Assembly (NCBI GenBank): GCA_963822585.1 | Contig: CAWGIE010000045.1 | Span: 1,791-65,790, forward strand | Length of the DNA stretch: 64,000 bases | Source: an uncultured bacterium | GTDB lineage: Bacteria; Auribacterota; Erginobacteria; Erginobacterales; Erginobacteraceae | Direction: 5' to 3' | Shown here: positions 11,991-50,088 of the stretch, piece by piece | Numbering within the stretch: the stretch's first letter is position 1 | Layout of the letters: each line of letters begins with the position of its first letter | Notes under the pieces: generated by a model | Seen by the model: only the letters and a program-made list of their open reading frames with translations | Told to the model about the DNA's origin: nothing | Databases searched by the model: none | Translations under genes and position numbers: made by a program

Positions 11991-12198
11991 TGTAGGATCG
12001 TCCTTTCGCTTTCGCGACAGGACTTGTAGGATCAGAATGCCTGCGGCATTCTTTGTAGTAATTGCAGGATCGCTTCGCTTGCAGTTCAGCAAGCCTTGCC
12101 TCCGGCAAGGCGATACTACATTTCCTACATCTCCTACAAGTCCTTCACGGAGTGAAGGACGATCCTGCATAAATTCGCGAACGAAGTGAGCTAATTTA
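11991..12198 (+). repeat. ~210-bp branched palindromic element, copy 1 (MITE/REPIN-like)
   Basis: Terminal inverted repeat TGTAGGATCGTCCTT...AAGGACGATCCTGCA, nested internal stems, 3' TAAATT...AATTTA hairpin. Confidence 0.9.
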
Positions 12199-12199
12199 T

Positions 12200-12682
12200 A
12201 TGAGAGTCGGGTTCGGATACGATATTCACCGGCTGGTCGAGGGCCGGCGGCTGATCCTGGGGGGCGTGGAGATCCCGCATGATCGCGGGCTGCTCGGGCA
12301 CTCGGACGCCGATACTCTGACCCATGCCGTCATCGACGCCCTCCTCGGCGCCGCCGGGCTGGGCGATATCGGGCGGCATTTCCCCGACACCGACGAGCGG
12401 TACCGGGGAATAGCGAGCCTGGAGCTGCTGGAGGAGACGGCGGCGAAGGTCCGCGCGGCCGGTTTCGAAATCGGGAACATCGACGTCACGGTTGTTCTCC
12501 AGGAACCGAAACTGGCCCCCCTGGCCGGGAAAATGAGGAACATCCTGGCCGGGACCCTGGGGGCCGAACCGTCCCGGATCAATATCAAGGCGGCCACCAA
12601 CGAGGGGCTGGACGCGGTCGGGAGGGGAGAGGCGATCGCCGCCTGGGCGGTGGCGTGTGTGATTGAAAAGCAGGGCGCCTGA
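12200..12682 (+). CDS. ispF: 2-C-methyl-D-erythritol 2,4-cyclodiphosphate synthase
   Basis: [37 protein letters not shown]. Confidence 0.97.
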
Positions 12683-12857
12683 AAGAGCTTCCGTTGCCGG
12701 AAGTTCAGACCTGTTATGTATATAGATGAGTAATCAGTGATCGGTTATCAGTAACCAGTCGGCCCACCCGGATCTCTCCTGGAAAGCCCGCTCACCGATT
12801 ACTGATTACTGATCACTGATCACTGATTACTGATTACTGATTACCAGGACCCTAGTA

Positions 12858-14351
12858 ATGACCGAACTACATGTGTACAACACGCAACATCGGCAAAAAG
12901 AACTCTTTCAGCCACTGGAGCCGGGCCACGTGCGGATGTACGTCTGCGGCGTCACCGTGTATGATTTCTGCCATCTTGGTCACGCCCGCTGCTACGTCGC
13001 TTTCGATATCATCTACCGCTATCTTCAATACCTCGGCTATCAGGTCACCTATGTCCAGAATATCACCGACCTCGACGACAAGCTGATCAAGCGGGCGCGG
13101 GACAACGGCGGGGAAGGGGACGTGAAGGAACGGGTGGCAGACCTGGCCCGGACGTTCACCGCCGCCTATTTCGAGGACATGGAACGGTTGAACGTTCTGC
13201 GGGCGGATTCCTATCCGACGGCTACCGGGCACATCGGGGAGATGCAGGAGATCGTCTCCGGCCTGATCGAGAAGGGATATGCCTACCAGCGGGGAGGGGA
13301 CGTTTATTTCGAGGTCGCCGCCTTCCCGGACTACGGCGCCCTCTCCGGTAAGAAGACCGACGAACTCCAGGCCGGTGCCCGGGTCAAGGTGGACGAAAAG
13401 AAGAAGAGCCCGCTCGATTTCGCCCTCTGGAAGGGCGCCGCGCCGGGGGAACCGTCCTGGTCCAGTCCCTGGGGAGAGGGTCGGCCGGGGTGGCATATCG
13501 AGTGCAGCGCCATGAGCATGAAGCTGCTGGGGCCGACCTTCGACATCCACGGGGGTGGCCAGGACCTGGTTTTCCCCCACCACGAGAACGAACGGGCCCA
13601 GTCGGAGGCGTTCTCGGGAGAGCCCTTCGCCCGCTACTGGCTTCACAACGGCTTCGTCACCATTAACCAGGAGAAGATGTCAAAGTCGCTGGGAAATGTC
13701 TTCAACCTACGGGATATCTTCCGGGCCTATTCCCCCCGGGTGGTGCGGTTTTTCCTCCTCAGCCAGCATTACCGCAGTCCCGTCGACTACAGCGAAGACG
13801 CCCTGAAGGAAGCCGGACGCGCCCTCTTCCGGCTTGATCATTGCTATGGGATGGCCCTGAAGGAGATGGGTGATTTTTCTTCTGTTTCGCCGGATGAAGA
13901 CGCGATGGGTAAGTTCGAGGAGGCGATGAACGACGATTTTAATACCGCGGCGGCCCTGGCGATAGCCTTTACATTGGCGGAAGAATGGTACCGTGATTAT
14001 CGCAAACCGAAATTAATGGAAGGACTCAAGCCGAAAATGGCGGCTTTGAAGAATATCTGCTCCATTTTAGGGATTGAATTGTATGATCCCATTAATGACC
14101 TGTTGAAAGATGCCGAACCGATAGATAGTGCGGATTATATTTCCCTGGCTGACCGAATCATTTTTGGGAACCGACTGACGGAAGGGAATCTTACCATTCT
14201 GCTTGGTTGCCGAGAGACGGCCCGAAAAAACAAGGACTGGCACTGGGCCGATCGGATCAGGGATTATCTGAAAAAAAGAGATATAACGGTAGCGGACAAA
14301 CCCGGTCAACCGTCATCCGCGGTTTATTATCCCGAACAACTTGATGATTAG
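12858..14351 (+). CDS. cysS: Cysteine--tRNA ligase
   Basis: MYVCGVTVYD..HLGH, DFALWK, GRPGWHIECS, DIHGGG.DL.FPHHENE, KMSKS. Confidence 0.98.
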   Translation: MTELHVYNTQHRQKELFQPLEPGHVRMYVCGVTVYDFCHLGHARCYVAFDIIYRYLQYLGYQVTYVQNITDLDDKLIKRARDNGGEGDVKERVADLARTFTAAYFEDMERLNVLRADSYPTATGHIGEMQEIVSGLIEKGYAYQRGGDVYFEVAAFPDYGALSGKKTDELQAGARVKVDEKKKSPLDFALWKGAAPGEPSWSSPWGEGRPGWHIECSAMSMKLLGPTFDIHGGGQDLVFPHHENERAQSEAFSGEPFARYWLHNGFVTINQEKMSKSLGNVFNLRDIFRAYSPRVVRFFLLSQHYRSPVDYSEDALKEAGRALFRLDHCYGMALKEMGDFSSVSPDEDAMGKFEEAMNDDFNTAAALAIAFTLAEEWYRDYRKPKLMEGLKPKMAALKNICSILGIELYDPINDLLKDAEPIDSADYISLADRIIFGNRLTEGNLTILLGCRETARKNKDWHWADRIRDYLKKRDITVADKPGQPSSAVYYPEQLDD

Positions 14352-14409
14352 TGGACCACGTTTAGATGATAAGGAAGAAGGTTACTGGATTCAGAATGCT
14401 TCATTTTCC

Positions 14410-14435
14410 CTTCGTGATCTTCGTGTCCTTCGTGG
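14410..14435. repeat. Repeat family B (ACCACGAAG-type 9-mers and reverse complement); others at ~4731-4758, 27800-28041, 28890-28917, 35906-35931, 49733-49816, 55455-55552
   Basis: CTTCGTGATCTTCGTGTCCTTCGTGGT, and ACCACGAAGGACACGAAGTTCACGAAG on the other arm. Confidence 0.85.
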
Positions 14436-14480
14436 TTTTTTATACAGCAGAGTGACAAGAAATCAAGGAGATGTAAAATT

Positions 14481-15131: not shown

Positions 15132-15164
15132 AGTCTTATTTTTTCTTCGAAAAAATAAGATTGT

Positions 15165-15274
15165 GCAAGCCTTGCCGCAGGCAAGGCGATCCTACATTTA
15201 CTACATCTACTACAAGTCCTGAACGGAGTGAAGGACGATCCTACATAAATTCGCGAGCGCAGCGAACTAATTTA
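15165..15274 (+). repeat. ~210-bp element, copy 2 (3' half only)
   Basis: GCAAGCCTTGCC-GCA-GGCAAGGCGATCCTACA...GGAGTGAAGGACGATCCTACATAAATT...CTAATTTA. Confidence 0.9.
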
Positions 15275-15276
15275 TA

Positions 15277-16410: not shown

Positions 16411-16465
16411 ATGTCTCTACCCCCGAGCTATACAGGGGAATTAACGTGTCAAGGTAAACTGTATC

Positions 16466-17293: not shown

Positions 17294-17294
17294 G

Positions 17295-18902: not shown

Positions 18903-19074
18903 TGGAAATTAGTTTTTTCGCTCCGCCCCGAAGTTTTAATCGGGGGAGAAAAAGAATGTAAATTGGAAGAGGCCGGGGTTGGGGGATAGAATGGTTGCCT
19001 GAAAACTGTCCGTATATTCAGGAAAGACATTTGAACAGTCTGTTGAATCTATTTTTTGCGGAGCAAAAAATAAA

Positions 19075-22391: not shown

Positions 22392-22422
22392 AATCCGGGC
22401 GCACAGCGCCCGGATTTTAATT
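22386..22422. terminator. Hairpin / bidirectional terminator after the lptD-like gene
   Basis: AATTAAAATCCGGGCGC-ACA-GCGCCCGGATTTTAATT perfect inverted repeat. Confidence 0.7.
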
Positions 22423-22597
22423 TCGAATTCCCTTACCGGGATTATTCATGAAGAGCGAAAATGTGCGTTACTACTCACGCTATTCCTGGCATTGTTCAAA
22501 ACTAAATTAGCTCCGCCGGCGCTAATTTAAACTGTACAATCAAAAACTCGCTTGTTACTATGGCGGGCTTTATTTTTATCTACCTCAGGAGGTTTTG

Positions 22598-23887: not shown

Positions 23888-23889
23888 AA

Positions 23890-23982: not shown

Positions 23983-24045
23983 TTTTATGATATCTCCGGT
24001 AATCCGGGAAAATTTTCCATTTGTTGAGAGACGCATAATTTTGTC

Positions 24046-34744: not shown

Positions 34745-35235
34745 CCTTCGCGGCGGTTTTCTGCCTGGCCTTGTCGGCCGCCGCCTTCGCCCAGACGTTG
34801 AACCGGGGGAAGCTGTTCGAGATCAAAACCTTCCGCCCGGTGCGGCTGAGCGGCGACAACGTTGTCTATGAGTTCAACGGGAAGGACCTTGATAAGGGGC
34901 TGGAGCTTGCCTTCCGGATCAAGTCGGCCGGAGAATTCCCCGGCGTTTATTTCCAGGTCACCCTCTTCGACAGCAAGATGCGGCCGATCCGGAATGGGAT
35001 CCAGGGCGTCTTCTCCGATGAAGATAACCGCCAGACCTCCGCGATCCGCTCCAGCTATGTTTCCGGCTCCGTCCGGCGGATCGACGGCTTCAAGGGGAAA
35101 CGGACCTATACCCTCACCTTCATCCCCGGCGAATCGTACAAGTACGCCCTGGCCGAGGTCGGAAACGGCGACGAGAAGATCTACGCCGTCTATCCCCGGA
35201 CTGCCAAGCTGGCAGACCTCTTGCCCCGGCAGTAG
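34702..35235 (+). CDS. Hypothetical secreted protein
   Basis: Signal peptide ending AFA; overlaps the upstream gene; host-like codon usage. Confidence 0.65.
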   Translation: MDTRPAALFWRRRIAFAAVFCLALSAAAFAQTLNRGKLFEIKTFRPVRLSGDNVVYEFNGKDLDKGLELAFRIKSAGEFPGVYFQVTLFDSKMRPIRNGIQGVFSDEDNRQTSAIRSSYVSGSVRRIDGFKGKRTYTLTFIPGESYKYALAEVGNGDEKIYAVYPRTAKLADLLPRQ

Positions 35236-35245
35236 GGAAGGGGAA

Positions 35246-35480
35246 TGTAGTATCGTCCTTTCGCTTTCGCGACAGGACTTTTAGGATCAGAATGCCTTCG
35301 GCATTCTTTGTGGGAATTGTAGGATCGCGTTCTGCCGGCCCCGCCGGCCGCAGTTCAGCAAGCCGTGCCTCCGGCACGGCGATACTACATTTACTACATC
35401 TCCTGCAAGTCCTGAACGGAGTGAAGGACGATCCTACATAAATTGGCTCACTGCCTTTCAAAAGGCAGTGAGCCAATTTA
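35246..35480 (+). repeat. ~210-bp element, copy 3 (expanded internal hairpins)
   Basis: TGTAGTATCGTCCTTTCGC...AAGGACGATCCTACA; GCCGTGCC-TCC-GGCACGGC; ends at the cdd stop codon. Confidence 0.9.
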
Positions 35481-35891
35481 TTACAGCCCCAATTTATGGG
35501 GCCCGAACATCTCCGGGTAGAGCTCGGTGAAACGGGTCTCCCGGATCTCGCCGCCGGTATTGGCGGCCAGGATCAGCAGATCCCCCCGGTCGAATTCGGC
35601 CAGGCTCTGCCGGCAGATGGCGCAGGGGAAAGGGGGGGGTGAAGCATCGGTGAGGACCAGTAGCGCTCTGAACGCGGTCTCCCCGGCGGCGACCGCCGCG
35701 GCCAGGGCGTTTCCTTCCGCGTGGGTGGTGGTGGTGAAGGCCGCATTCTCCACGTTGCACCCGCTGTAATAGTTTCCTCCGGCGGTCAGGACAGCCGCTC
35801 CCACCAGGTAGTTGCTGTAGGGAGCATGGGCGTGCCTCCTGGCTTCCCCGGCACGGCGCAGCAGTTCATCTTTCTGTTCCCGTGAAATCAT
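35481..35891 (-). CDS. cdd: Cytidine deaminase
   Basis: APYSNY.VGAA, GCNVENA, HAE, PCAICRQ. Confidence 0.93.
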   Translation of the reverse strand: MISREQKDELLRRAGEARRHAHAPYSNYLVGAAVLTAGGNYYSGCNVENAAFTTTTHAEGNALAAAVAAGETAFRALLVLTDASPPPFPCAICRQSLAEFDRGDLLILAANTGGEIRETRFTELYPEMFGPHKLGL

Positions 35892-36215
35892 ACCCGGGAA
35901 TACTACCACGAAGTACACGAAGTACACGAAGAAAAATTAATAAATAGTGGCAAGAGGGGGTAATAGGGAACCGGTCACAACTGACCCATCATTCCATTAC
36001 CCCGCCGGTCATTATTTCTCATCATTCACCACCGGCCGAGCAGCGTCCTATTTGAGCCATAAAGGCACACTGTCGGGATAGTTATCAGAAACTGTGCCAT
36101 AATTACCCGCCAATACATTCCGCCGGTACAGTTATTGTAAAGTTGCTATTTCACTATATATTTATATGCAGGCAGTTATATTAAATATTTTATTTTTCTG
36201 AATATTTATTATATA

Positions 36216-36231
36216 TGGCACGTTAATTGCT
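36216..36231 (+). promoter_or_regulatory. Sigma-54 (-24/-12) promoter upstream of dnaK
   Basis: TGGCAC-GTTAA-TTGCT matches consensus TGGCAC-N5-TTGCW; preceded by an AT-rich tract. Confidence 0.75.
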
Positions 36232-36284
36232 CTTATTACCAGTGCCAGCAGAATAATATATCTAAAACAAGGAGGAAAAATAAA

Positions 36285-38222
36285 ATGCCTAAGGTAATCG
36301 GAATAGATCTGGGCACCACCAATTCGTGTATGGCGGTGATGGAAGGGAAGGATCCGAAAGTTATCCCCAACGCCGAAGGAAGCCGGACCACTCCTTCCGT
36401 CGTTGCCTTCACCAAAACGGGGGAACGGCTGGTCGGGCAGCCCGCCAAACGGCAGGCTATCACCAACCCGGCCAACACCATTTTCTCGATCAAGCGGTTT
36501 ATGGGTCGCCGGTTTGACGAGGTTCAGTCGGAGATCAAGCTCGTCCCCTACAAAGTTATCAAAGCTTCCAACGGCGACGCTCGGGTCGAGGTGGAGGGGA
36601 AGGTATATTCTCCCCCCGAGATCTCGGCCATGATACTCCGGAAGCTGAAGCAGGACGCGGAAGCCCATCTGGGCGATAAGGTCAGCGGCGCGGTCATCAC
36701 CGTCCCGGCCTATTTCAACGACAGCCAGCGCCAGGCGACCAAAGACGCCGGCAAGATCGCCGGTCTCGAAGTCCCCCGGATCATCAACGAGCCGACGGCG
36801 GCTTCCCTGGCCTATGGCCTGGAAAAGAAGAAAGATGAGAAGATCGCCGTCTTCGACCTCGGGGGAGGGACCTTCGATATCTCGATTTTGGAGATCGGCG
36901 AGGGCGTTTTCGAGGTAAAATCGACCAACGGCGATACCCACCTGGGCGGCGACGATTTCGACCAGCGGATCATCGATTGGATTGCCAGCGAGTTCAAGAA
37001 AGACCAGGGGATCGACCTCAAACAGGACCCAATGGCGTTGCAGAGGCTGAAGGAAGCCGCCGAGAAGGCGAAGTGCGAGCTCTCCAGTACCATGGAGACC
37101 GAGATCAATCTGCCCTTTATCACCGCCGACGCCTCCGGCCCCAAGCACCTCTCCATGAAGCTGACCCGGGCCAAGCTGGACTCCCTCTGTGAGGATCTGA
37201 TCGAGCGGACCAGAAAGCCCTGCGAGCAGGCTCTCAAGGATGCCGGCCTGACCAAGGAAGGCATCAATGAAGTTATCCTGGTCGGCGGGATGACGAGGAT
37301 GCCGGCGGTCCAGGAGATGGTCAAGAAGCTCTTCGGAAAAGAACCCCACAAAGGGGTCAACCCGGACGAGGTCGTGGCCATCGGCGCCGCCATCCAGGCC
37401 GGTGTCCTCCAGGGAGACGTCAAGGACGTGCTCTTGCTGGACGTGACGCCGCTCTCCCTGGGGATCGAGACCCTGGGCGGCGTGATGACCCGGCTGATCG
37501 ATCGCAACACGACCATCCCGACCAAGAAGAGCGAAATTTTCTCCACCGCCGCCGACAGTCAGACCCAGGTCGAGATCCACGTCCTCCAGGGCGAGCGCGA
37601 GATGGCCGCCAACAACCGGACGATCGGGAAGTTTCATCTGACCGGGATCCCGCCGGCCCCCCGGGGCGTGCCCCAGATCGAGGTCTCGTTCGACATCGAC
37701 GCCAACGGCATCCTGAACGTTTCCGCCAAGGACCTGGGGACGGGAAAGGAACAGAATATCACCATCACCGCCTCCAGCGGTCTCTCCGAGAATGAGGTGG
37801 AGAAGATGGTGAACGAGTCCAAGCAGCACGCCGATGAGGACAAGAAGCTGCGCCAGGCGGTTGACGCCAAGAACCAGGGGGACGCGGCCGTGTACCAGAC
37901 CGAGAAGCTCCTCAAGGAGAATGAGGACAAGATCGGCGCCGACTCCAAAGCCAAGATCGAGGCCGCGATCGAACGCCTGAAAGCGGCCCTCAAAAAAGAG
38001 AATGCGGACGAGATTAAGTCCGCCACGGAAGGCCTCAACCAGGTCTGGCATTCCGTGAGCCAGGAGATGTATCAGCAGGCCACCGCCGCCGGCCAGGGCG
38101 CCCCGGGCGCCGGACCGGGCGCGGGACCCCAGGGTCCGCCTCCTCCGGGCGCGGAACAGGGACCTCCCCCGGAGGGCGAGGTGATCGACGCCGAGTTCGA
38201 GGTCGAAGACGATAAAAAGTAA
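36285..38222 (+). CDS. dnaK: Chaperone DnaK
   Basis: [51 protein letters not shown]. Confidence 0.99.
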
Positions 38223-38366
38223 AAGCAGAACAGGAAACAAGGGAAGAAAAGGAGGTGGTGAGCGATACTGGCATAAGAATTAATCAAGCGGCAATAAAAT
38301 GTTTTGAACTGGAAAAGTAAAACTAAAATTTTTCGAAGAAAAATTTTATAAAGGAGGCTGAGCTTT

Positions 38367-40314
<1,948 letters not shown>

Positions 40315-40350
40315 TTTTTCTTCTCCTTCGGGAAAGAAAAATTTCCGGAA

Positions 40351-40385
40351 AGGCGGCCCCGCCATGCGGCGGGGCCGCCTTTTTT
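40351..40385 (+). terminator. Intrinsic terminator after groEL
   Basis: AGGCGGCCCCGCC-ATGC-GGCGGGGCCGCCT followed by a T run. Confidence 0.85.
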
Positions 40386-40421
40386 CTTCTCTGATAAAGC
40401 GATATCGGGTATGTTTTACCC

Positions 40422-41162
40422 ATGGAAGAAAAAGCCTTCATGCCGGATCCCGTGCTCTGGCTGCTTCACCTTTTTTATCCCCGGGAGTGCGTTCACTGCG
40501 GGCGGCTGCTCGAATACCGGAACCGGGAATATCTCTGTCCTGCCTGCCGTCCCTTGCTTTTCCCGATCAAGGACGCGGTCTGCGAGAAGTGCGGACGTCC
40601 CCTGGAGGGGGAGGTGCTCCCCCCGGTGGAATGCCCCCCCTGCCGGGAGAAAGCTCCGGCCTTCCGTCGCGCTCGGGCGGCCTTCCTTCTCACCGGGGCC
40701 GGGAAGAGTCTGGTTCTGGGCTACAAGTACGGTCGCAACCCCTATCTCTCGGGGACGGCGGTTTCCCTGCTCCACGGGGCTTTTCTGGCCCGCTTCCGCC
40801 GCCCGGATTACGATTTTATCCTGCCGGTGCCGCTCCACCCCCGCAAGGAGCGGGAACGGGGCTTCAACCAGTCCGCGCTCCTGGCTGCCGGCCTCGGCCG
40901 CCGGACCGGTATCCGCCTGGCGGGGAAAGGACTGATCCGGGACCGTTATACGGGAACGCAGACCCGGCTGAGCAGAAAGGAGAGACAGAAGAACGTCCGG
41001 GGAGCGTTCCGGGTTTTATCCGTCGACCGTTTCCGCGGCCGGTCGCTTCTTCTGATCGATGACGTCTACACCACCGGCGCCACCGTCAACGAGTGCGCGA
41101 AGGTCCTGGTGAAGGCGGGAGCGAAGAATGTTGACGTGTTGACGTTGGCCCGGGCGGTGTGA
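40422..41162 (+). CDS. comF: ComF family protein (double zinc ribbon plus PRTase-like domain)
   Basis: C..C motifs, PVPLH..K.RERGFNQS, LLIDDVYTTGAT. Confidence 0.9.
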   Translation: MEEKAFMPDPVLWLLHLFYPRECVHCGRLLEYRNREYLCPACRPLLFPIKDAVCEKCGRPLEGEVLPPVECPPCREKAPAFRRARAAFLLTGAGKSLVLGYKYGRNPYLSGTAVSLLHGAFLARFRRPDYDFILPVPLHPRKERERGFNQSALLAAGLGRRTGIRLAGKGLIRDRYTGTQTRLSRKERQKNVRGAFRVLSVDRFRGRSLLLIDDVYTTGATVNECAKVLVKAGAKNVDVLTLARAV

Positions 41163-41303
41163 GTGAAAAGGACCGAACATCCAACAGTGAACGCCGAACT
41201 TCGAACGCCCCTGGCTGGGGCATGAAAAAAAGCCATCGATAGTCCGATCGGTCCGATCCGACCGATCCGTCCGATCAGTGATCAACAAAGGCCGAGTAGG
41301 GAA

Positions 41304-42053
41304 ATGAAAACTCATGCGAAAATCCGCCTTCACAAGTACCTCTCCCAGGCCGGGGTCGCCTCCCGGAGGGAAGGGGAAAGGCTGATGCGCGGAGGGCGGG
41401 TGACGGTCAACGGTCTCCCGGCGCGCGAACCGGGTACGGTCATCGATCCGGCAACCGATCTGGTCGAAGTAGACGGGCGCCCCGTCCGGCCGGAGAAGAA
41501 AATGTACCTGATGCTGAACAAGCCGGCCGGCTACCTGTGTTCCCTTCGGGATCGATTCGGGGACCGTCTGGTGACCGAACTGACCGCCGGGATCCCCGAG
41601 CGGCTCTATCCTGCCGGACGGCTGGACCTGGATTCGGAAGGTCTCCTGATCATGACCAACGACGGCGCCTTTGCCCAGAACCTGACCCACCCTTCCCACC
41701 GGGTGACCAAGACGTACCGCCTGCAGCTGGGCGCGCCCCTCTCCGCGCGGCAGGAGGAGCGGCTGGTAAAGGGAGTCCGGCTCGACGACGGTTTCCGGAC
41801 CGCCCCCGCCCGGGTGAGGATCCTCTCCCCCGACCGCCGGAGGATAGAAGTCGTGATCGGGGAAGGGAAAAAACGGCAGGTGAAGCGGATGCTGCTGGCG
41901 GTGGGAAACCGGGTGAAATCACTGGAACGGACCGCGATCGGTCCCCTGACCCTGGGAAGTCTTCCCCGGGGGAAATGGCGCCCGCTGACGCCGGCGGAAA
42001 TTAATTCTTTAAAAGCGCCCGCAAAAAACGATAATTGCCCGGGCGGTAGCTGA
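41304..42053 (+). CDS. rRNA pseudouridine synthase (RsuA/RluB family)
   Basis: S4 domain RL.KYLSQAG.ASRR; NKP.GY; GRLD.DSEGL; EGKKRQV. Confidence 0.93.
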   Translation: MKTHAKIRLHKYLSQAGVASRREGERLMRGGRVTVNGLPAREPGTVIDPATDLVEVDGRPVRPEKKMYLMLNKPAGYLCSLRDRFGDRLVTELTAGIPERLYPAGRLDLDSEGLLIMTNDGAFAQNLTHPSHRVTKTYRLQLGAPLSARQEERLVKGVRLDDGFRTAPARVRILSPDRRRIEVVIGEGKKRQVKRMLLAVGNRVKSLERTAIGPLTLGSLPRGKWRPLTPAEINSLKAPAKNDNCPGGS

Positions 42054-42092
42054 AACCGCCCGGTCGGAATTTTAGAAAGCGAAATCCAACAG

Positions 42093-42300
42093 TGTAGTAT
42101 CGTCCTTTCGCTTTCGCGTAAGGATTTGTAGGATCAGAATGCCTGCGGCATTCTTGGTAGAAATTGTAGGATCGCTCCGCTTGCAATTCGGCAAGCCTTG
42201 CCTCCGGCAAGGCGATCCTACATTTACTACAACTACTACAAGTCCTTCACGAAGTGAAGGACGATCCTGCATAAATTTGCGAGCTCCGCGAGCTAATTTA
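42093..42300 (+). repeat. ~210-bp element, copy 4
   Basis: TGTAGTATCGTCCTTTCGC...GTCCTTCAC-GAA-GTGAAGGACGATCCTGCA...CTAATTTA, upstream of the clpB RBS. Confidence 0.9.
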
Positions 42301-42315
42301 TAATAGGAGGTCACA

Positions 42316-44958
42316 ATGGACTTCAGCAAATTCACCCTGAAAGCGCAGCAGGCCCTGAAGGCGGCCCAGGACCTGGCCTCGGATCACAACCAGCAGGAGA
42401 TCGCTCCCGCGCATCTTCTCCTGGCCCTTCTCGATCAGGAGGAGGGGCTCACCCGCCCGATCCTGCGGAAGCTCTCGGTCGACCCGGAGGAGGTGAAGAC
42501 CCGGGCCGACGAGGTCGTCTCCCAAATCCCCCAGGTGTACGGCGCCGGCCCCCAGACGGCGTATCTTTCCCCCCTGCTCAACAAGGTCCTCAATACCGCC
42601 TGGGACGAGGCGAAGAAACTGAAGGACGAGTACCTGAGCGTGGAGCACCTCCTGCTCGCCCTGGCCGAATCGGACTCCCCGGCCGGGAAGATCCTCCGCG
42701 ATCTCGGGGTCACCCGGGACGCCATCCTCCAGGTCCTGGTCGAGATTCGGGGGAGCCAGAGGGTGGTCGATCAAAATCCGGAGGAAAAATACGAGGCGCT
42801 AACCCGCTTTGCCCGAGATCTGACGGATCTGGCCCGGAGAGGAAAACTCGACCCGGTGATCGGACGGGACGACGAGATCCGCCGGGTCATCCAGGTCCTC
42901 TCCCGGCGGACCAAGAACAACCCGGTCCTGATCGGGGAGCCGGGGGTGGGGAAGACCGCCATCGCCGAGGGGTTGGCCACCCGGATCATGACCGGGGACG
43001 TGCCGGAGGGGCTGAAGGACAAGCGTTTGCTCGCTCTCGATATCGGGGCGCTGGTGGCGGGGGCGAAATACCGCGGGGAATTCGAGGACCGGCTCAAGGC
43101 GGTCCTGGCCGAGGTGGAGAAGGCCGCGGGGCAGATCATCCTCTTCATCGACGAACTGCATACCATCGTCGGCGCCGGCGCCGCCGAAGGGGCGGTTGAC
43201 GCCTCCAACATGCTCAAGCCGGCCCTGGCCCGGGGCGAACTCCGCTGCGTCGGCTCCACCACCCTTGACGAGTACCGCAAGTACATCGAGAAGGACGCGG
43301 CCCTGGAGCGCCGGTTTCAGCCCGTCTTTGTCGGGGAGCCGTCGGTTGAGGCGACGATCGCCATCCTCCGGGGACTGAAGGAGCGCTACGAGGCCCACCA
43401 CGGGGTCCGGATCACCGATCCGGCCCTGATCGCCGCCGCCACCCTTTCCGACCGCTACATCAGCGACCGTTTTCTCCCCGACAAGGCCATCGATCTGATC
43501 GACGAGGCGGCCTCCCGTCTCAAGATCGAGATCGATAGCATGCCGATCGAGGTGGACGAGGTGGAGCGGAAGATCATGCGGCTGGAGATCGAAAAACAGG
43601 CTTTGAAAAAAGAGAAGGACAAGGCGAGCAAGGAACGGCTGGTCGCGCTCAACCAGACCCTGGAGAACCTGAAGGAAGAGAGCAAGGGCCTCAAGGCCCA
43701 CTGGCAGAATGAGAAGAAGGCCATCTCCGCGATCCGCGCCCTGCTGGAACGGCTCGACGCCATCAAGGTCGAGGAGGCGGCCGCCGAGCGGGAGGGGAAC
43801 CTGGAAAAAGCCGCCCAGCTCCGGTACGGGGAGAAGATCGAACTCCAGAAGAAACTGGAGGAGGCCAACCGGCGTCTGAACGAGCTGCAGAAGGACCGCC
43901 AGATGCTCAAGGAGGAGGTGACCGAGGACGACATCGCCGAGGTGGTGGGCAGCTGGACCGGCATCCCGGTCAACCGGCTTCTGGAAGGGGAGATGGAGAA
44001 GCTGATCCGGGTCGAGGAACGGCTGCACCGGCGGGTGATCGGGCAGGAAGAGGCGATCGGGGCCGTTGCCAACGCCATCCGGCGGGGGCGGGTGGGGATG
44101 TCCGATCCCAATCGGCCGCTCGGCTCCTTTATCTTCATGGGGCCTACCGGGGTGGGCAAGACCGAGCTGGCCAAGGCCCTGGCCGAGTACCTTTTTGACG
44201 ACGAGAAATCGATGGTCCGGCTGGACATGTCCGAGTACCAGGAGAAGCATACCGTCTCCCGCCTGATCGGCGCTCCTCCCGGGTATGTCGGCTATGATGA
44301 AGGCGGCCAGCTGACCGAAGCGGTCCGCCGGCGTCCCTACTCGGTTATTCTCTTCGACGAGATCGAGAAGGCCCACCCGGACGTCTTCAACGCCCTTCTC
44401 CAGATCCTGGATGACGGGCGGATGACCGACGGGAAGGGACGGGAGGTCAACTTCAAGAACACGGTCGTGATCATGACCTCCAACATCGGGTCCCCGATCA
44501 TCCAGGAATACTCCGGCAAGAACCCCGAGGAGATGAAGGAGAAGGTGATGGAGGCCCTCCGCCAGCGGTTTCGCCCCGAATTCCTCAACCGGGTGGACGA
44601 GATCATCATCTTCACCGGTCTCAACCGTGACGAGATCAAACAGATCGTCGACCTTCAAGTCGCCCATCTTGCCCGCCGGCTGGCCGGGCGGAAGATGAGC
44701 ATCGATCTCACCGAGCGGGCCAAGGAGCACCTGGCCCGGATCGGCTACGATCCGTCTTTCGGCGCCCGGCCCCTCAAGCGACTGATCCAGCGGCAGATCG
44801 AGAACCCTCTGGCCCTCCGGATCCTGGAGGGCGAGTTCCAGGACGGCGACGCGATCGAGGCGGATTACGATCCGAAAAAGGACGCCCTCGTCTTTAAAAA
44901 GCTGAAGTCCGCGGCAAAGGAAGAAGATACGTCATCCGAATCCGGACAGGGTGACTGA
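42316..44958 (+). CDS. clpB: Chaperone ClpB
   Basis: Clp N domain, two AAA+ modules ([16 protein letters not shown]), long coiled-coil middle domain. Confidence 0.97.
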
Positions 44959-45085
44959 AGCTGTCCGTCATAAAAGGGCTAAATAAAAAGGAACCAGTAA
45001 TTAAAATGGCGGAGGGTATATAGGTACTTTCGCACGAATGTGCGAATAGTTGGTGGCGGCGTTGGATTGTTACGAGAGGGAGATA

Positions 45086-45397
45086 ATGTCTGATACCGGG
45101 GATATCCTGATCAAGAAGTTGGAAGAGACCTTTAAAGGAGTATCCTGCCATCGGCGGATCAGGATAATTAAATTGCTTTTTCCCGATCGTGAAAAGAACC
45201 TCGGGGAGATAGCAGGCAGGATCGGGTTGTCCATACGCAGCACTTCAAAACATCTTATTCAGCTGGAGAAAGCCGGTTTTTTAACAAGTCGACAATCGGG
45301 CTTTTTCAAGATATACCGAATCAATCCGGCTTCCGATGATATCGTGAAAAAGGTTATCCTGCTGGTGATCAGGAATCCTGTTCAACATGAGAGATAG
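45086..45397 (+). CDS. ArsR/SmtB-like winged HTH regulator
   Basis: R.RII.LL...GEIA......STSKHL..LEKAGF..SR..G...YR. Confidence 0.75.
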   Translation: MSDTGDILIKKLEETFKGVSCHRRIRIIKLLFPDREKNLGEIAGRIGLSIRSTSKHLIQLEKAGFLTSRQSGFFKIYRINPASDDIVKKVILLVIRNPVQHER

Positions 45398-47327
45398 CGC
45401 GTCCATCATCTTCTGCGTCTGCCTGCTGGTGGTCCTCAACCTGCTTGCTTTTTCTCCTGCTTTGACCGGCTCTTTTCTCAACTGGGATGACGAGGAAAAC
45501 GTTGTCTTTCATCGTGGAATCAGGACAGCCGGGCCGGAGAACATCCTCTGGATATTCACCGACTTCACCGTCGGTGATTTTAAGCCCCTGGCCTGGATCA
45601 GTTACGCCTTCGATTATACTTTCTGGCGGCTGAACCCATTCGGTTACCATTTCGGGAACATCCTGGTCCACGCCGCCTCGGCGGTACTGGCTTTCTCCCT
45701 GCTCTGCCGCCTGGGGAGGCGTCTTCGTCCCGCCGGGGAAATTTCTCCGGTCTTCGCGGCCTTCGCCGCCGCCGTGTTTTTTTCGCTTCATCCGCTCCGG
45801 GCGGAATCGGTGGCCTGGATCAGCGAGAGAAAGGACGTTCTCTGCTGTTTCTTCTACCTGGCGTCAGTTGCGGCCTATCTCCATTATCGCGAACGGCGCC
45901 GGCGGGGATGGTACACGGCTTCATTGCTCTTCGCCCTCCTGGCCATGCTCGCCAAGCCGATGGCCGTTACCATCCCCGTCGTCATGATCCTGGCCGATCT
46001 TCTTTTCGGTAAAACCGGTCTCCCGACCGGGAAGGGGATCAGGTGTCGCGCGATCGAGCAGATACCCTTCCTCCTGCTGGCGATCGCGGTCGGAGTGGTC
46101 GCCCTGCTCGGACAGACACGGCTCCAGGCGCTGGTCCCGCTGGCAACAATCGGTCCCGGAGAACGGGTGCTCATGGCCGGCAATACGATGGTCTTTTACC
46201 TGGAGAAGCTTTTACTCCCGGTCTCGGTCTCGGCCGCTTATCCGGCCGCGGCCACGTTCCCGTTTGTTCCCCTGGCCGCGCTGCCCTCCCTGGCCGTCCT
46301 GGCGTCGATCACGGTTTTGGCGGTCGCTCTCCGGCGCCGGGGGACGAGAGGAGTTCTGTTTTTCTGGTTCTGGTTCGTGGTTTCGATCCTGCCGGTCAGC
46401 GGTCTTTTCCCGGCCGGGATGGCCGCGGCGGCAGACCGGTTCACGTATATCCCTTCCTTCGGGATCGCGGGGCTGCTTTTCTGCGGCCTCGCCGGGCTGG
46501 GGGCACCACCGCGCCGATGGCTGCTTCTCCTTCCGGTCCTGGCGGGAGCGGCCTGCCTGCTCATCCTTGCCTTCAGCCGGGCGGAAGTCTGGAGAGAATC
46601 GGAAACGCTCTGGGCGGACGCGGTCGCTCAGTACCCCGCCACACCGATGGCCCAGGCCCACCTGGGGCAACTTCTCTATCAGCGGGGGGCGGACGACGCC
46701 GCGATCGGCCATCTCCGCAGCGCCTTGGAGATGATGGATGCCGATCCGATGGCTCGGGGGGATATCATCTTCGCCGTGAAGAGCAACCTGGCCCGGGCGC
46801 TCGGACGTTCCGGCTCTCCGGAGGAAGGGGCGGCGCTCCTGGAGGAGATATTGTCGAGCCGCGACGACTGGGTGACTCACCACTCCCTGGCCGGCCTGTA
46901 TTCCCGGATGGGGAAAAAGGAGCAAGCCCTGCGGGAGTACGAGAAGGTGCTCATGGCCCGGCCCGGTTTCGTGCCCGCGTTATGTGAGTATGGTCTTCTC
47001 CTGGCCCAGTCCGGTCAACCCGACCGGGCGATCGAGGTATACAACCGGGCTCTGGCCGTTCTCCCGGATAGCCCGCGGGCGCGCTATAATCTCTCTCTGG
47101 CTTATCTCGATCGGGGCGACCCCGGCCGGGCGATCGCGCTTCTGGAGAAACTGGCGGAAGAATACCCCGATGTTCCCCGGGTCGCCGAAGCGCTGGCGAT
47201 CGCCTACCGGGTCGCGGGGCGCCCCGAAGAGGGGCAGGGAATCCGGCCGGTCCCGGTCTCGAGCGGGGAGGATAACGTGCCTTACAGCAAAGGCGAGCGC
47301 CCGGATGTTTTGATACCGATCAGGTGA
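45387..47327 (+). CDS. TMTC-like membrane glycosyltransferase (GT-C fold) with C-terminal TPRs
   Basis: F.NWDD, FKPL, GYH..N...H, HPL.AESVAWISERKD, ADRF.YIP, W.....LW, TPR repeats. Confidence 0.8.
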   Translation: MRDSASIIFCVCLLVVLNLLAFSPALTGSFLNWDDEENVVFHRGIRTAGPENILWIFTDFTVGDFKPLAWISYAFDYTFWRLNPFGYHFGNILVHAASAVLAFSLLCRLGRRLRPAGEISPVFAAFAAAVFFSLHPLRAESVAWISERKDVLCCFFYLASVAAYLHYRERRRRGWYTASLLFALLAMLAKPMAVTIPVVMILADLLFGKTGLPTGKGIRCRAIEQIPFLLLAIAVGVVALLGQTRLQALVPLATIGPGERVLMAGNTMVFYLEKLLLPVSVSAAYPAAATFPFVPLAALPSLAVLASITVLAVALRRRGTRGVLFFWFWFVVSILPVSGLFPAGMAAAADRFTYIPSFGIAGLLFCGLAGLGAPPRRWLLLLPVLAGAACLLILAFSRAEVWRESETLWADAVAQYPATPMAQAHLGQLLYQRGADDAAIGHLRSALEMMDADPMARGDIIFAVKSNLARALGRSGSPEEGAALLEEILSSRDDWVTHHSLAGLYSRMGKKEQALREYEKVLMARPGFVPALCEYGLLLAQSGQPDRAIEVYNRALAVLPDSPRARYNLSLAYLDRGDPGRAIALLEKLAEEYPDVPRVAEALAIAYRVAGRPEEGQGIRPVPVSSGEDNVPYSKGERPDVLIPIR

Positions 47328-47542
47328 TGACGGAGCGGTTGACGGGGAGCCGTGCCGGGGGTAAACGACGAAGAGGTTCGGTGCGTTATGGAGTAATGGA
47401 GTGGTGGAGTAATGGGGTGAGGGGGGCCGGGAGACTTCCCACACTCCATTATTCCATCATTCCAGTACTCCCGGTTACTGGTTCTCCGATAGTGGCAAGA
47501 TCAACAGATCGGGCGCATATGTATAGCGGCCAGGCGCCCTCC

Positions 47543-48037
47543 TCACTCCGACTCCCACCACTGCCGCCACAGTTGAGCGTATTTTTTAATCCAGTCGTTG
47601 GCGGCGTCCGAGCCGACATCGTGGCCGATCTTCTCGGATTCAAGCCACTTGTGCCTGAGGATCTGCTCCATCTGATTCCGGGAGGAAAGTTCCATCCTCT
47701 TCTCGCGCCAGATTCGGGCGTAGTTCTTCATCCAGTCCTCGATGGTTTCCTGGATGCTGACCCAGCGGCAATATCGCTGTGAAAGGAAATAGCGGTGGAC
47801 CTGGATGGCCTTCCATTCCGCCGGACTGAAACGTTTCCCTTCCGGAGGAGTCTCTCCCGTCTGGGCCTCAATCGCTTTTTCGTGTTCCTGCCACATCTCG
47901 GCGTAGTTCTTGAGCCAGTCCGCGATGACTTCTTTGAGTCCGACCTCACGGCCCGCTTTCTCGGAGAGAAAGTACTTATGAACGTGAATCGCGCTCCATT
48001 CAGCGGGACTGAAATAATACACGGATTTTGGTTTCAT
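47543..48037 (-). CDS. Protein of three tandem DUF4032-like repeats
   Basis: Three units of I..H[KR][YW]..S[EQ]...V....DW.K.YA..W. Confidence 0.75.
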   Translation of the reverse strand: MKPKSVYYFSPAEWSAIHVHKYFLSEKAGREVGLKEVIADWLKNYAEMWQEHEKAIEAQTGETPPEGKRFSPAEWKAIQVHRYFLSQRYCRWVSIQETIEDWMKNYARIWREKRMELSSRNQMEQILRHKWLESEKIGHDVGSDAANDWIKKYAQLWRQWWESE

Positions 48038-48171
48038 GGCGCTGAAAAAAGCGGCTATACTATCACTTGTACCATCTATGGCGGGAAAAAATACCCTAAA
48101 AATATCCCGGATGCAAATAAAAAATGATCGTAATTGACCGGCCCGGTGCCCCGCTGATAGGGTAAAAATCG

Positions 48172-49716
48172 ATGAATAACGATCTTGATATCGGCGAACT
48201 GCTGATGGTGGGGTTTGCAGGCGAAGAGCCGGACGCCCTGCTTCGCCGGTATATCCTCGAGTGGCGGGTAGGGGGGGTGATTATATTCCAGAGAAATATT
48301 CGGGACCCTGATCAGCTCGCCCGTCTCTGCGGGGAATGTCAACAACTGCGGCGGGAGGTAGCCGATACCCCGCTCCTGGTGGCGATTGATCAGGAAGGAG
48401 GAACGGTTGCACGGCTGAGAGAGGGGGTGACCGCCTTTCCCGGGAACAGGGCGTTGGGATTCGCGGGGACGCCCGGAGACGCCTATCGCCAGGGATTGGT
48501 GACCGGCCGCGAGCTGCGCGCTTCCGGAATCAACATGAACCTGGCTCCGGTTCTGGATCTGTATTCCCCGGAAGGCAGCCACAGTCTCGGGCTTCGGTCG
48601 TTGGGGAGCGATCCGGAAAAGGTGGCCTCACTGGGCGCGAAGTTGGTCCGGGGGATGCAGGACGCGGGGATCGCGGCGACCGCCAAACACTTCCCGGGGA
48701 AGGGATCGGCCCGGCGGGATTCCCATCAGGAACTGCCGGTTATCCGGACGCCGGCGAGTCTGATCCGGCAGCGGGACCTGGTCCCTTTCCGGACGGCGGT
48801 GCGGGCCGGGGTGAAGGCGGTGATGACCTCGCACGCCGCCTACCCGGCTCTTGACGGGGGCCGAGTCCGGCCGGCCACGCTTTCCCGGCCCATCATGACC
48901 CTGCTTCTCAGGGGCGAGCTGCATTTCCGGGGGGTTCTCATCAGCGATGACCTGGGGATGGGCGCCGTCGGCTCCGGGTATCCCGTCCCGGACGCCGCGC
49001 TGGCCGCTCTCCGGGCCGGGGTGGACATGCTTCTTCTCTGTCATTCGCCGCTTGATCGGGAACGGACGCGGGAGCTTCTGGCGGCGCGCGGGAAGACGGA
49101 CACGGAAACCGGGGACAGGATCGCGGAAAGCCGGGGGCGGCTCGCCGCCCTCAAGGCGGAACTTCTCCGGCCGGTCCCGGATTCCGGGACCGGGCCCGCG
49201 AATGGGAACGGACTCGCGCTCCGGCTGGCCCGGGGGGCCGTGTCCGCGGCGGGGATATCCGGGAAGACGTCCCCGGCGATCGGGGGAAAGCCGTTCCTCC
49301 TGGTCTGGTTCGAGCCGGAGCAGACTGTCGAGGTCGAGGACGCGTCCCCGGCCGGGGAGGGTCCGGCCGCCGCTTTCCGGGAGGCGGGGCTCACGGTTGA
49401 AATCATCACGCTCCCTCTCCGACCCGGGCCGGGAAAGAATGAAAAAGTGCTCGCCGCCGTTTCCCGCGACCGACCGGTCGTCATCTGCGCTTGTGACGCG
49501 TACCGTTTCCCGGAGCAGCGGGAATTGATCGCGGCCGTTCTTTCCCGCCGACCGGACGCGGTTCTGGCGGTGGTGCGGGATCCCCGCGATGCCGGGATCT
49601 TCCCCCGGGCGGCAACGGTAATCGTTACCCGCGGCCACGGCCCTTTATCCATCCGGGCCCTGGCCGAAGTCCTGGCCGGAAAACTAATTCCAGTGAGAGA
49701 AAACCGCGGCAAGTAG
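48172..49716 (+). CDS. nagZ: Beta-N-acetylhexosaminidase (GH3, NagZ-like)
   Basis: GGVIIFQRN, AIDQEGG.V.R, NLAPVLD, KHFPG.G...DSH, SDDLGM. Confidence 0.9.
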   Translation: MNNDLDIGELLMVGFAGEEPDALLRRYILEWRVGGVIIFQRNIRDPDQLARLCGECQQLRREVADTPLLVAIDQEGGTVARLREGVTAFPGNRALGFAGTPGDAYRQGLVTGRELRASGINMNLAPVLDLYSPEGSHSLGLRSLGSDPEKVASLGAKLVRGMQDAGIAATAKHFPGKGSARRDSHQELPVIRTPASLIRQRDLVPFRTAVRAGVKAVMTSHAAYPALDGGRVRPATLSRPIMTLLLRGELHFRGVLISDDLGMGAVGSGYPVPDAALAALRAGVDMLLLCHSPLDRERTRELLAARGKTDTETGDRIAESRGRLAALKAELLRPVPDSGTGPANGNGLALRLARGAVSAAGISGKTSPAIGGKPFLLVWFEPEQTVEVEDASPAGEGPAAAFREAGLTVEIITLPLRPGPGKNEKVLAAVSRDRPVVICACDAYRFPEQRELIAAVLSRRPDAVLAVVRDPRDAGIFPRAATVIVTRGHGPLSIRALAEVLAGKLIPVRENRGK

Positions 49717-49881
49717 AGCAATGAAGTAATTAACCACGAAGGACACGAGGAACACGAAGGACTGTTGAGAAAATAAGTATGTTTTGATTGATTAAAATCT
49801 TCGTGAACTTCGTGTCCAGGGTAGATTTGTCGTAACTGCTTTGTAGTGCTCAGGAATTTCAAGAAAAGATATATCCAATAA

Positions 49882-50088
49882 TGTAGTATCGCCCTTTCGC
49901 TTCGCTTCCGGGCTTGTAAGATCAGAATGCCTTCGGCATTCTTTGTAGTAATGGTAGGATCGCTTCGCTTGCAGTTCAGCAAGCCTTGCCGGAGGCAAGG
50001 CGATACTACATCTCCTGCAATTCCTACAAGTCCGAAACGAAGTGAAGGACGATCCCGCATAAATGTGCGACCAACGGGAGCTAATTTA
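49882..50088 (+). repeat. ~210-bp element, copy 5
   Basis: TGTAGTATCGCCCTTTCGC...GCCTTGCC-GGA-GGCAAGGC...AAGGACGATCCCGCA...CTAATTTA. Confidence 0.9.

Follow-up and report, generated by a model that had tools for sequence, protein, structure and literature searches.

Why should one repeated palindrome lie directly against the start codons of genes that have little in common? The question is raised by a 64,000-nucleotide (nt) stretch of DNA, here called the window, from an uncultured bacterium of the family Erginobacteraceae (assembly GCA_963822585.1, contig CAWGIE010000045.1, our contig C45), in which an initial annotation had placed five co-oriented copies of a branched palindromic element of about 210 bp. 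Inspection of the sites and alignment confirmed that all five copies lie on the + strand, the second of them being a half-copy at 15161-15275. Each copy is a mosaic of three parts, namely an optional 5′ hairpin, a 178-nt core and a separable 31-nt 3′ tail, and it is the tail that is found against start codons. The element is best read as a non-autonomous, lineage-restricted mosaic of small palindromic repeats whose architecture resembles that of doublets of repetitive extragenic palindromic sequences (REPs), known as REPINs, or of bacterial interspersed mosaic elements (BIMEs). Judging from the sequences, we lean somewhat toward the view that the tail hairpin acts as a portable translation-start leader, which would let a selfish core persist inside operons.

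Contact of the tail with start codons

The genome that carries the window, G000, is a metagenome-assembled genome (MAG) of 4.51 Mb in 48 contigs, 89.2% complete and with 7.79% contamination. A search profile built from the four full window copies gave 120 matches in it, which after merging of the strands formed 67 loci, 43 of them near full length (from model position 5 or lower to 205 or higher). The elements measure 178-245 bp and have no coding capacity. Profile matches occurred in 7 of 41 related genomes, G000 included, all from a single family, in which 6 of the 8 other members were positive, and the 17 other families searched gave none; a 29-nt pattern from the right end of the core was present in one other genome among 185,579 species representatives, a MAG of the Planctomycetes-Verrucomicrobia-Chlamydiae (PVC) group. 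The repeat family is real, family-restricted and far beyond chance. A search of the whole window against Rfam at gathering thresholds returned nothing for the element, its sole match being a tRNA gene at 1950-2023, and a permissive search of 11940-12260 gave a single chance-level hit (E = 0.74). Nor did we find a description of this family in the literature searched, a body of work outside which many subscription journals lie. Two copies on different contigs, C36:71130-71337 and C42:12653-12860, have identical flanks, which probably reflects assembly duplication in view of the 7.79% contamination.

Tails were counted as profile matches with E < 0.001 that reached model position 27 or beyond. 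This gave 84 tails in G000, 42 adjoining a core and 42 without one. With gene models from a crude open reading frame (ORF) caller, the 3′ end of the tail lay at -2 to +5 nt from an in-frame, co-oriented start in 57 of the 84 (29 with a core and 28 without), and all 57 of these starts were ATG. Random intergenic 31-mers are expected to make such contact in 0.93% of cases (binomial p about 1e-94). Twelve further tails ended 7 to 19 nt from the start, mostly with a GGAG-type Shine-Dalgarno sequence of the gene's own in the gap, while six were more than 60 nt away and nine had no co-oriented gene. No divergent gene started within 25 nt of the 5′ side of any of the 84 tails. Eight of the 15 tails away from starts abutted or overlapped the stop codon of a convergent gene, as does copy 3 of the window; with 57 tails at starts and 8 at convergent stops, the distribution does not match the site typical of REPs, downstream of ORFs and near stops. 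Since the half of the tails that have no core behave identically, the start-codon contact belongs to the tail and not to the core. The initial annotation had suggested that the element may provide translation-initiation signals and had named random orientation and position as the outcome that would speak against a regulatory role. Orientation and position are far from random; position strongly supports the suggestion for a separable 31-nt tail, though not for the whole element.

Related genomes gave the same picture. In the fetched loci, where a start was assigned to the first start codon that leads into an ORF of 60 or more residues, 21 of 31 tails of G001, a member of the same genus, lay at -2 to +3 nt from a start and 7 at 6-19 nt; in G003, from another genus, 13 of 25 lay at -2 to +1 nt and 4 at 7-20 nt, with 8 having no start. 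The final AT of the tail was itself the AT of the ATG in 3/84 cases in G000, 1/31 in G001 and 5/25 in G003, the ATG elsewhere lying 0-5 nt beyond. Matches to the tail pattern, allowing up to 2 mismatches, numbered 69 in G000, 99 in G001, 43 in G003, 2 in G004 and 1 in G006, and there were none in the nine other genomes searched within the taxonomic order (four of the same family and five of other families); a reversed-pattern control gave 0 in all genomes searched.

The starts themselves were compared with homologues. The N terminus of IspF (MRVGIGYDIH...) begins at the same methionine in five relatives, and that of the metallo-beta-lactamase (MBL)-fold hydrolase (MKITLIGTG...) does so in two. 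Pfam scans covered 40 downstream proteins, every one of the 28 behind a core-less tail and 12 of the 29 behind a tail with a core. Of these proteins 36 had matches, and many of the domains start within the first few residues (YgbB at 1, CobA at 1, VTC at 2, PHP at 4, SecE at 5).

The tail has relatives in G000, a class of perfect 29-nt palindromes composed of an 8-nt A/T-rich arm, GCGCC-NNN-GGCGC and the matching arm, which occupy 60 sites. Their asymmetry is confined to the 3-nt loop. When read on the strand that shows a GGA, GAA, GCA, GTA or AAA loop, 26 of 51 palindromes had an in-frame called start at -3 to +12 nt, whereas the complementary-loop reading placed 0 of 51 near a start. Examples with the sequence GCGCC-GNA-GGCGC are found at C36:35745 and C17:62127, a weak one is present in the window at 22503-22529, and the GGA-loop form displays GGAGG at its apex. 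The orientation of the repeats follows the gene and is therefore not predicted by a purely replication-strand-dependent process. A view that we hold to be possible, though well short of probable, is that the entire sense-strand hairpin family, the tail together with its perfect-palindrome relatives, constitutes an alternative and largely Shine-Dalgarno-independent start signal. It would be actively copied to precisely the 5′ border of start codons, those of essential genes such as infB, ffh, secE and dnaE included, by an as yet undescribed orientation-aware mechanism, with the core and other modules hitch-hiking.

Other repeats were seen at the same genes in other genera. In G003 (loci L015 and L019) and in the metagenome contig L156, a different repeat, ACTTTAGGCACTTTAGCGCACTTAAGGCACTT, ends 3-6 nt before the ATG of the ispF/MBL orthologues. 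The ispD-ispF spacer of three genomes of a third genus, g2 (L014, L016, L017), holds an unrelated element that resembles a MITE (miniature inverted-repeat transposable element), with tandem-sub-repeat termini ACCGCAAAGACGCAAAGAACGCAAAG ... CTTTGCGTTCTTTGCGTCTTTGCGGT. Start-abutting repeats seem to be a trait of the lineage rather than of one sequence family. On the view of an alternative start signal set out above, the different repeats that other genera carry at the same genes would suggest a lineage-wide process directed at start codons.

Anatomy of the mosaic and its copies in the window

The five copies and their parts are as follows; the names of neighbouring genes are Pfam-based.

11964..11985, + strand: copy 1, optional 5′ hairpin module (GGGATTTT..AAATCC)
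11991-12199, + strand: copy 1, whole (from the alignment)
11991..12169, + strand: copy 1, 178-nt core, 15-bp terminal inverted repeats around GTAGKATC-headed hairpins H1-H5
12169..12199, + strand: copy 1, 31-nt tail hairpin; ispF ATG at 12200
15161-15275, + strand: copy 2, 3′ half (model positions 95-209)
15161..15244, + strand: copy 2, 3′ half of the core (model positions 95-178)
15245..15275, + strand: copy 2, tail hairpin; holB ATG at 15277
35246-35481, + strand: copy 3, whole
35246..35437, + strand: copy 3, core with a 14-nt GC-rich central insertion
35438..35481, + strand: copy 3, tail variant, a 44-nt perfect hairpin with the same AT-rich arms
42066..42087, + strand: copy 4, 5′ hairpin module
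42093-42301, + strand: copy 4, whole
42093..42271, + strand: copy 4, core
42271..42301, + strand: copy 4, tail hairpin; followed by the clpB AGGAGG at 42305-42310 and ATG at 42316
49853..49876, + strand: copy 5, 5′ hairpin module
49882-50089, + strand: copy 5, whole
49882..50059, + strand: copy 5, core
50059..50089, + strand: copy 5, tail hairpin; ATG of the MBL-fold hydrolase gene at 50091

The contacts that the initial annotation had reported at three ATGs, at the clpB ribosome-binding site and at the cdd stop were all borne out. Copy 1, in the ispD/ispF locus, leaves a gap of 0 nt to the ispF ATG, and the gap is 1 nt both for copy 2 in the tmk/holB locus and for copy 5, which lies between a gene of glycoside hydrolase family GH3 and the MBL gene. 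Copy 4, whose other neighbour is a pseudouridine-synthase gene, is separated from the clpB ATG by 14 nt that include the Shine-Dalgarno sequence. Copy 3 starts 10 nt past the stop of an unnamed upstream ORF (34702-35235) and reaches, with its final base, into the stop codon of cdd, a convergent gene on the minus strand (35481-35927). At 15133-15157, immediately past the tmk stop and a short way upstream of half-copy 2, there is an A/T-only hairpin, CTTATTTTTTC-TTCG-GAAAAAATAAG. Hairpins like it (TTTTCC-GGA-GGAAAA, TTTTATTTTTTC-TGCG-GAAAAAATAAAA) occur 0-8 nt before the ATG of several genes with tail-led orthologues in G001 or G003.

As RNA, copy 1 is predicted to fold at -107.5 kcal/mol (z = -9.0; none of 200 shuffles equalled it) and as DNA at -59.6 kcal/mol (z = -9.0). 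Each full copy carries the 15-bp terminal inverted repeat of the core, TGTAGKATCGTCCTT / AAGGACGATCCTRCA, which begins TGT...ACA, and the nested GGACTTGTAGGA / TCCTACAAGTCC stems, in agreement with what had been noticed at first. The core consists of units in which an 8-nt head, GTAGKATC, is joined to a GC-rich hairpin; H1 and H2 point forward, H4 and H5 are followed by the reverse head GATMCTAC, and H3 is central. The core therefore contains short palindromes with a conserved unpaired GTAG head, as in REPs, which are imperfect palindromes of 20-40 bp (PMC3733652), and its units are opposed with their heads outward, as in REPINs and BIMEs.

These features were followed in an alignment of 27 distinct core copies, obtained from the 43 full ones after 15 had been dropped for length (>260 nt including a 36-nt flank, owing to insertions) and 1 as an exact duplicate. 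Between the terminal units, 359 of the 405 cells are paired, and H2 is invariant, with 207/207 cells paired. The initial annotation was right about the compensatory change in a side hairpin (GCCTTGCC/GGCAAGGC versus GCCGTGCC/GGCACGGC), which is found again across the genome: this pair of H4 reads UA in 21 copies, GC in 4 and CG in 1, the neighbouring pair UA in 23, GC in 1 and CG in 1, and a pair of H1 UA in 23 and CG in 3. If the H1 column is paired across the terminal repeats instead, the U-to-C changes stay uncompensated (CA 4). Because the compensatory changes fit local pairs, they support the local hairpins H1 and H4 over long-range pairing of the terminal repeats.

The similarity noted upstream of copies 1, 4 and 5 turned out to be a separate 5′ hairpin module, (CTGCTTC)GGAATTTC-N-GAAATCC, which a strict pattern detects in 18 of the 43 full copies. 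In about a dozen copies the module is missing, and unrelated DNA runs straight up to the terminal repeat. We also considered that the full element might be flanked by a direct repeat of the right arm of the tail and dropped this idea, a TAATTTA-like sequence preceding the 5′ module in 3 of 43 copies. Relative to the best-scoring orientation of the core, six G000 loci have the tail on the other side of it (C39:8935-9140, C10:6495-6728, C36:329009-329220, C47:208152-208359, C26:159932-160155 and C8:100787-100992); core and tail are therefore not always joined in the same way.

The tail has the consensus ATAAATTTGCGAGCGCAGCGAGCTAATTTAT and a hairpin stability of -6.6 to -12.1 kcal/mol. In the 62 full-length tails of G000, seven A-T pairs are followed by a position, 8-24, that is mostly T.T (39) or A-T (14), then by G-C and C-G pairs and by a tandem G.A/A.G in 62/62. 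Above these, pair 13-19 is GC in 41 tails, CG in 11, AT in 7, TA in 1 and unpaired in 2, and the stem ends in a closing C-G pair (58/62) and a GNA triloop (54/62). The right arm, GAGCTAATTTAT, is almost invariant, and positions 1, 6 and 8 of the left arm vary. Eleven G000 tails are 100% identical. For a comparison across genomes we used 60 tails from the window, G001 and G003 (29 distinct), fetched by a pattern that left positions 8, 13, 16 and 19 free. In the 29 distinct tails the closing C-G pair is invariant and pair 13-19 is CG in 12, AU in 7, GC in 8 and other in 2, with a covariation score of 0.118 compared with 0.039 in shuffles, none of 500 shuffles being as high.

Several modules meet the 5′ edge of the tail at the identical base, namely the core, a CCCCGA..TCGGGG hairpin unit and a unit ending in ...GTCATTGTTCAAAACTT, while a CTTGGTGTCTTGGTG... 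unit substitutes for the left arm. Two explanations offer themselves: the modules land preferentially at the tail, or they are alternative composite units. Four tails of 52 nt (C17:16442-16493, C19:110592-110643, C26:422953-423004 and C39:46624-46675) carry a small hairpin unit (CCCCGATTTTATCGGGG + TAGACTGCG) inserted in the loop, a repeat nested in a repeat.

Possible roles of the tail and spread of the element

The 16S rRNA of G000 ends in the canonical ...GGATCACCTCCTTTA. Against this anti-Shine-Dalgarno sequence, the 3′ part of the CG variant of the tail forms a duplex of -8.6 kcal/mol (AAGGGAG, 9+d nt before the ATG; 11/62 tails) and the AT variant one of -5.2 kcal/mol, whereas the majority GC variant reaches -2.8 kcal/mol; the medians are -5.7 kcal/mol at -20 to -1 of called genes and -5.0 kcal/mol in coding-interior controls. 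The early remark that no Shine-Dalgarno sequence is evident hence applies to most copies. As most tails are weak in this respect, initiation, if the tail promotes it, would be mostly Shine-Dalgarno-independent. A small ORF or translational coupling was rejected: the gap to the ATG is anywhere between 0 and 5 nt, and none of the frames stays open across the element in a consistent way.

The tail might instead be a transcription signal placed just before the gene, either a promoter of the form TTGCGA-N16-TAT+NNN or an intrinsic terminator or insulator. The tail does have TTGCGA at positions 7-12, its TAT with the next bases reads TATAAT in some copies (holB, clpB), and its GC-rich upper stem is followed by AATTTAT. 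A promoter at this place would start transcripts inside genes, downstream of ATGs validated by homologues, and the presumed terminator has a stem followed by AA and no T-run, AATTTAT being itself part of the stem. In addition, consensus scans around copy 1 found no terminator-like site and, in 11800-12400, no sigma-70-type promoter, a consensus that may not suit this lineage. We regard a transcription signal as highly improbable.

The genes served by tails include ffh, psd, infB, secE, dnaE, dapF, exbB/exbD, those for a class II aminoacyl-tRNA synthetase, a member of the 5-enolpyruvylshikimate-3-phosphate (EPSP)-synthase family and glycosyltransferases, and others. They are functionally unrelated housekeeping genes, some of them essential, and the idea of a regulon was rejected on these grounds. 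As essential genes are among them, a tail set right before the ATG does not preclude their expression. Turnover is high: for 27 tail-led G001 genes a G000 counterpart (>=60% identity) exists, which bears the same tail in 5 cases, a related same-arm hairpin in 5 and neither in 17, and the same comparison gave 2 of 14 for the tail-led genes of G003. High turnover combined with near-identical tails points to recent copying rather than to an ancient conserved leader.

These data also bear on the view that the tail, perhaps with the whole element, is a host cis-regulatory RNA, a protein-bound or temperature-sensing leader for a gene set that owes its repetition to selection and not to mobility. Such a leader would account for the strict sense-strand orientation and ATG contact, for the invariant tandem G.A and right arm alongside a covarying pair, and for an A-U-rich lower stem that could melt; clpB, moreover, is among the tail-bearing genes. 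It fits poorly with the functional incoherence of the genes served, with the turnover between genomes, with eleven identical tails that look like recent copies, with the joining of the tail to several unrelated repeat modules and with the lack of an Rfam match. On balance, we doubt it.

By the translation-start leader reading, the 178-nt core would be a head-to-head cluster of GTAG-headed REP-like hairpins amplified as selfish DNA. A tail on the sense strand, its 3′ arm (GAGCTAATTTAT) flush with the ATG, would occupy the place of the ribosome-binding site, and the downstream gene would be translated from the tail acting as the initiation region of the mRNA, presumably through the A/U-rich arm and mostly without a Shine-Dalgarno interaction. 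A core that travels with such a leader, or inserts beside one, could persist before essential genes without silencing them. Spread through single-stranded DNA by an enzyme of the HUH/RAYT type (RAYT, REP-associated tyrosine transposase) is a possible and so far unsupported route.

Several observations weigh against this reading. The contact counts and the random expectation rest on the crude gene models, and the majority tail variant pairs weakly with the anti-Shine-Dalgarno sequence, which would leave initiation at most tails to some other interaction. The covariation involves a single tail pair, the remaining pairs being invariant or one-sided and thus uninformative either way. In the predicted fold, the sequence immediately before the ATG would be partly closed off by the hairpin, and the C-GNA-G apex with its tandem G.A may fit a role at the DNA level as well as one in RNA. 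How a 31-nt unit came to lie 0-3 nt from so many starts is not explained by a leader role. The mobility of the element, too, is deduced from sequence comparison, with no empty/filled allele pair found. We saw a target-site duplication in 0 of 29 copies (k = 4 to 9, with core-only or core-plus-tail boundaries). A genome-wide scan for the terminal repeat with up to 2 mismatches gave 105 matches, 5 of them outside known loci, and no pair enclosed a transposase-sized segment except where separate copies are neighbours, so that no autonomous copy appeared in this 89.2%-complete MAG. G000 has nine Y1_Tnp (IS200/RAYT-like) loci and five relatives yielded 36 matches; no GTAGKATC motif was present within 1.5 kb of the nine G000 loci, and among 36 fetched loci, of which G000 contributed 6 and the five relatives 30, none matched the core or tail profiles. 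All these genomes are incomplete MAGs.

Further results on these enzymes and alleles can be stated briefly. Twenty of the 36 Y1_Tnp matches are in G003, an unusually high count. The RAYT-like Y1-transposase genes of G000 at C31:1202-1870, C31:10743-11411, C23:61627-62286, C33:153941-154939 and C36:323185-324108 are flanked by REP arrays of their own and of other kinds, for example GTAGTTCCGGGGACACCATAC repeats and CACAGACAGGAATGTCTGTG repeats. Three salt-marsh DNA runs compared with 34000-52000 gave short low-depth contigs and pieces of conserved genes from other organisms, none of which bridged or skipped an element. Among 80 metagenomic loci encoding IspF relatives, the closest had 74% identity, no profile match to core or tail was seen and no near strain was present.

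The initial annotation had proposed a MITE/REPIN-like element. The terminal repeats, the opposed GTAG hairpins, the lack of coding capacity, the 67 loci and the family restriction agree with this proposal, and the absence of a target-site duplication and of a linked transposase or RAYT does not. In its stricter form, the element would be a classical terminal-inverted-repeat MITE, a deletion derivative of an insertion sequence (IS) with a DDE transposase (Chunjie- or Correia-like), mobilised in trans by a transposase that the MAG lacks or whose gene was not assembled, and start contact would be a by-product of tolerated insertion sites. The terminal repeats TGT...ACA, the multicopy, intergenic and non-coding character and the incompleteness of the MAG accord with it, as do the size of 178-245 bp and the fold of -107.5 kcal/mol, both in the range reported for Chunjie (PMC3184786). 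Chunjie, by the same account, has 9-bp direct repeats, which have no counterpart here at any k of 4 or more, and no longer G000 element carries the terminal repeat. The compensatory changes favour local REP-like hairpins over terminal-repeat pairing, and tolerance of insertion alone fails to explain 57 of 84 contacts in one orientation or the like behaviour of core-less tails. A classical MITE is, in our estimation, unlikely. In the literature searched, with many subscription journals outside its scope, nothing linked a MITE to a Shine-Dalgarno sequence, a start codon or translation initiation.

Alternatively, the tail could act at the DNA level, as a single-stranded hairpin for an HUH/RAYT-type enzyme or as a target of recombination or insertion, with its contact to ORF boundaries resulting from deletion-driven compaction. 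Its apex corresponds to GCGNAGC, which with sheared G.A pairs is described as a hyper-stable DNA mini-hairpin that requires a C-G closing pair (PMC13037366, PMC3201870), and the covarying pair shows no G.U intermediates. The lack of a target-site duplication is as in IS200/REP-type elements, Y1_Tnp loci are numerous (9 in G000 and up to 20 in relatives), different modules abut the 5′ edge of the tail at exactly the same base, and 8 of 15 non-start tails touch a convergent stop codon. However, no GTAGKATC head lies near the nine G000 loci and neither core nor tail within about 1.5 kb in the 36 fetched ones. Orientation tracks the downstream gene, with 0 opposite-sense cases beside a start, which an enzyme following the replication strand would not give, and compaction fails to explain why tails favour starts and not the stops of the genes before them. 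We therefore consider a DNA-level role to be rather improbable.

The placement of the family is what makes it of interest. REPs and MITEs usually lie behind genes or scattered in spacers, and their influence on expression is incidental, whereas here the 3′ module is at the start in about two-thirds of copies, always in the sense orientation and in three genomes, in the position expected of a ribosome-binding site and also before essential genes. If the hairpin does serve for initiation, it would amount to a portable leader of natural origin that shows how selfish DNA can spread inside operons without harm to expression, and it would open a way to study initiation without a Shine-Dalgarno sequence in a phylum-level group about which little is known. 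For annotation, starts exist that lack a Shine-Dalgarno sequence and have a conserved repeat, which could anchor start-codon calls.

Comparison with known systems

In GTAG-tagged REPs the GTAG head is unpaired, the stems measure 6-13 bp and the loops are short; these REPs often form opposed pairs and occur in PVC-group genomes such as those of Opitutus terrae and Rhodopirellula baltica (PMC3733652). The element shares with REPs, REPINs and BIMEs the GC-rich GTAG-headed hairpins (here GTAGKATC), the opposed units, the high copy number, the intergenic location, the complementary stem changes and the absence of a target-site duplication. It differs in that it is no REP doublet, its five hairpins being fixed in one unit of 178 nt with terminal repeats of 15 bp, and in that no RAYT gene flanked by these units was seen among the Y1_Tnp loci scanned. 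GTAG REPs, moreover, are mostly downstream of ORFs, near the upstream stop and at a variable distance from the next ORF, whereas this family is flush with the downstream start (PMC3733652).

Among mobile elements, Chunjie of Geobacter uraniireducens Rf4 measures 178-235 bp and has 21-bp terminal repeats, 9-bp direct repeats and a fold of about -98 to -130 kcal/mol (PMC3184786, PMC10969869). Size range, terminal inverted repeats, a stable predicted fold and insertion between operon genes without breaking the operon are common to both; by description, the element differs in having 15-bp terminal repeats and no direct repeat. MIRUs, the mycobacterial interspersed repetitive units, are likewise oriented repeats between genes of polycistrons whose ends overlap the flanking genes, yet they are 40-100-bp, tandem-prone units with small ORFs, and the present unit is a hairpin without an ORF (PMC3184786). 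Correia elements of Neisseria and the enterobacterial repetitive intergenic consensus (ERIC) sequences are also small, palindromic, transposon-like repeats that are co-transcribed and alter the expression of neighbours (PMC3184786). Unlike the tail, they act via promoters, sites for integration host factor or mRNA stability, and neither is reported to be flush with start codons as a rule. Correia elements insert at a TA target and are processed by RNase III.

The apex of the tail, N-C-GNA-G-N′ and commonly GCGCAGC or GCGAAGC, is alike to the d(GCGNAGC) mini-hairpin (PMC13037366, PMC3201870). The latter is a structural motif and not a genetic element, and the likeness indicates that the tail could adopt a stable fold in single-stranded DNA besides one in RNA.

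By analogy, the closest functional precedent appears to be the class formed by REP2 of Neisseria and IR-A/IR-B of Borrelia, repeats of about 120-150 bp with two internal stem-loops that lie directly upstream of co-oriented ORFs and carry the ribosome-binding site and start codon (PMC3184786). Compared by description, these repeats and the tails share the co-oriented position immediately upstream of ORFs. REP2 has no terminal inverted repeats and about 26 copies and provides a promoter to a co-regulated gene set (PMC3184786). Here, by contrast, the unit is a 31-nt hairpin leader with 69-99 pattern matches per genome and several upstream modules, the genes served are unrelated housekeeping genes, a consensus promoter was not found (copy 1) and the Shine-Dalgarno match is weak in most copies. 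Compared with REPs, then, the architecture itself is of a known type, and what stands out is a separable 3′ module that lies flush with the start codons of diverse genes.

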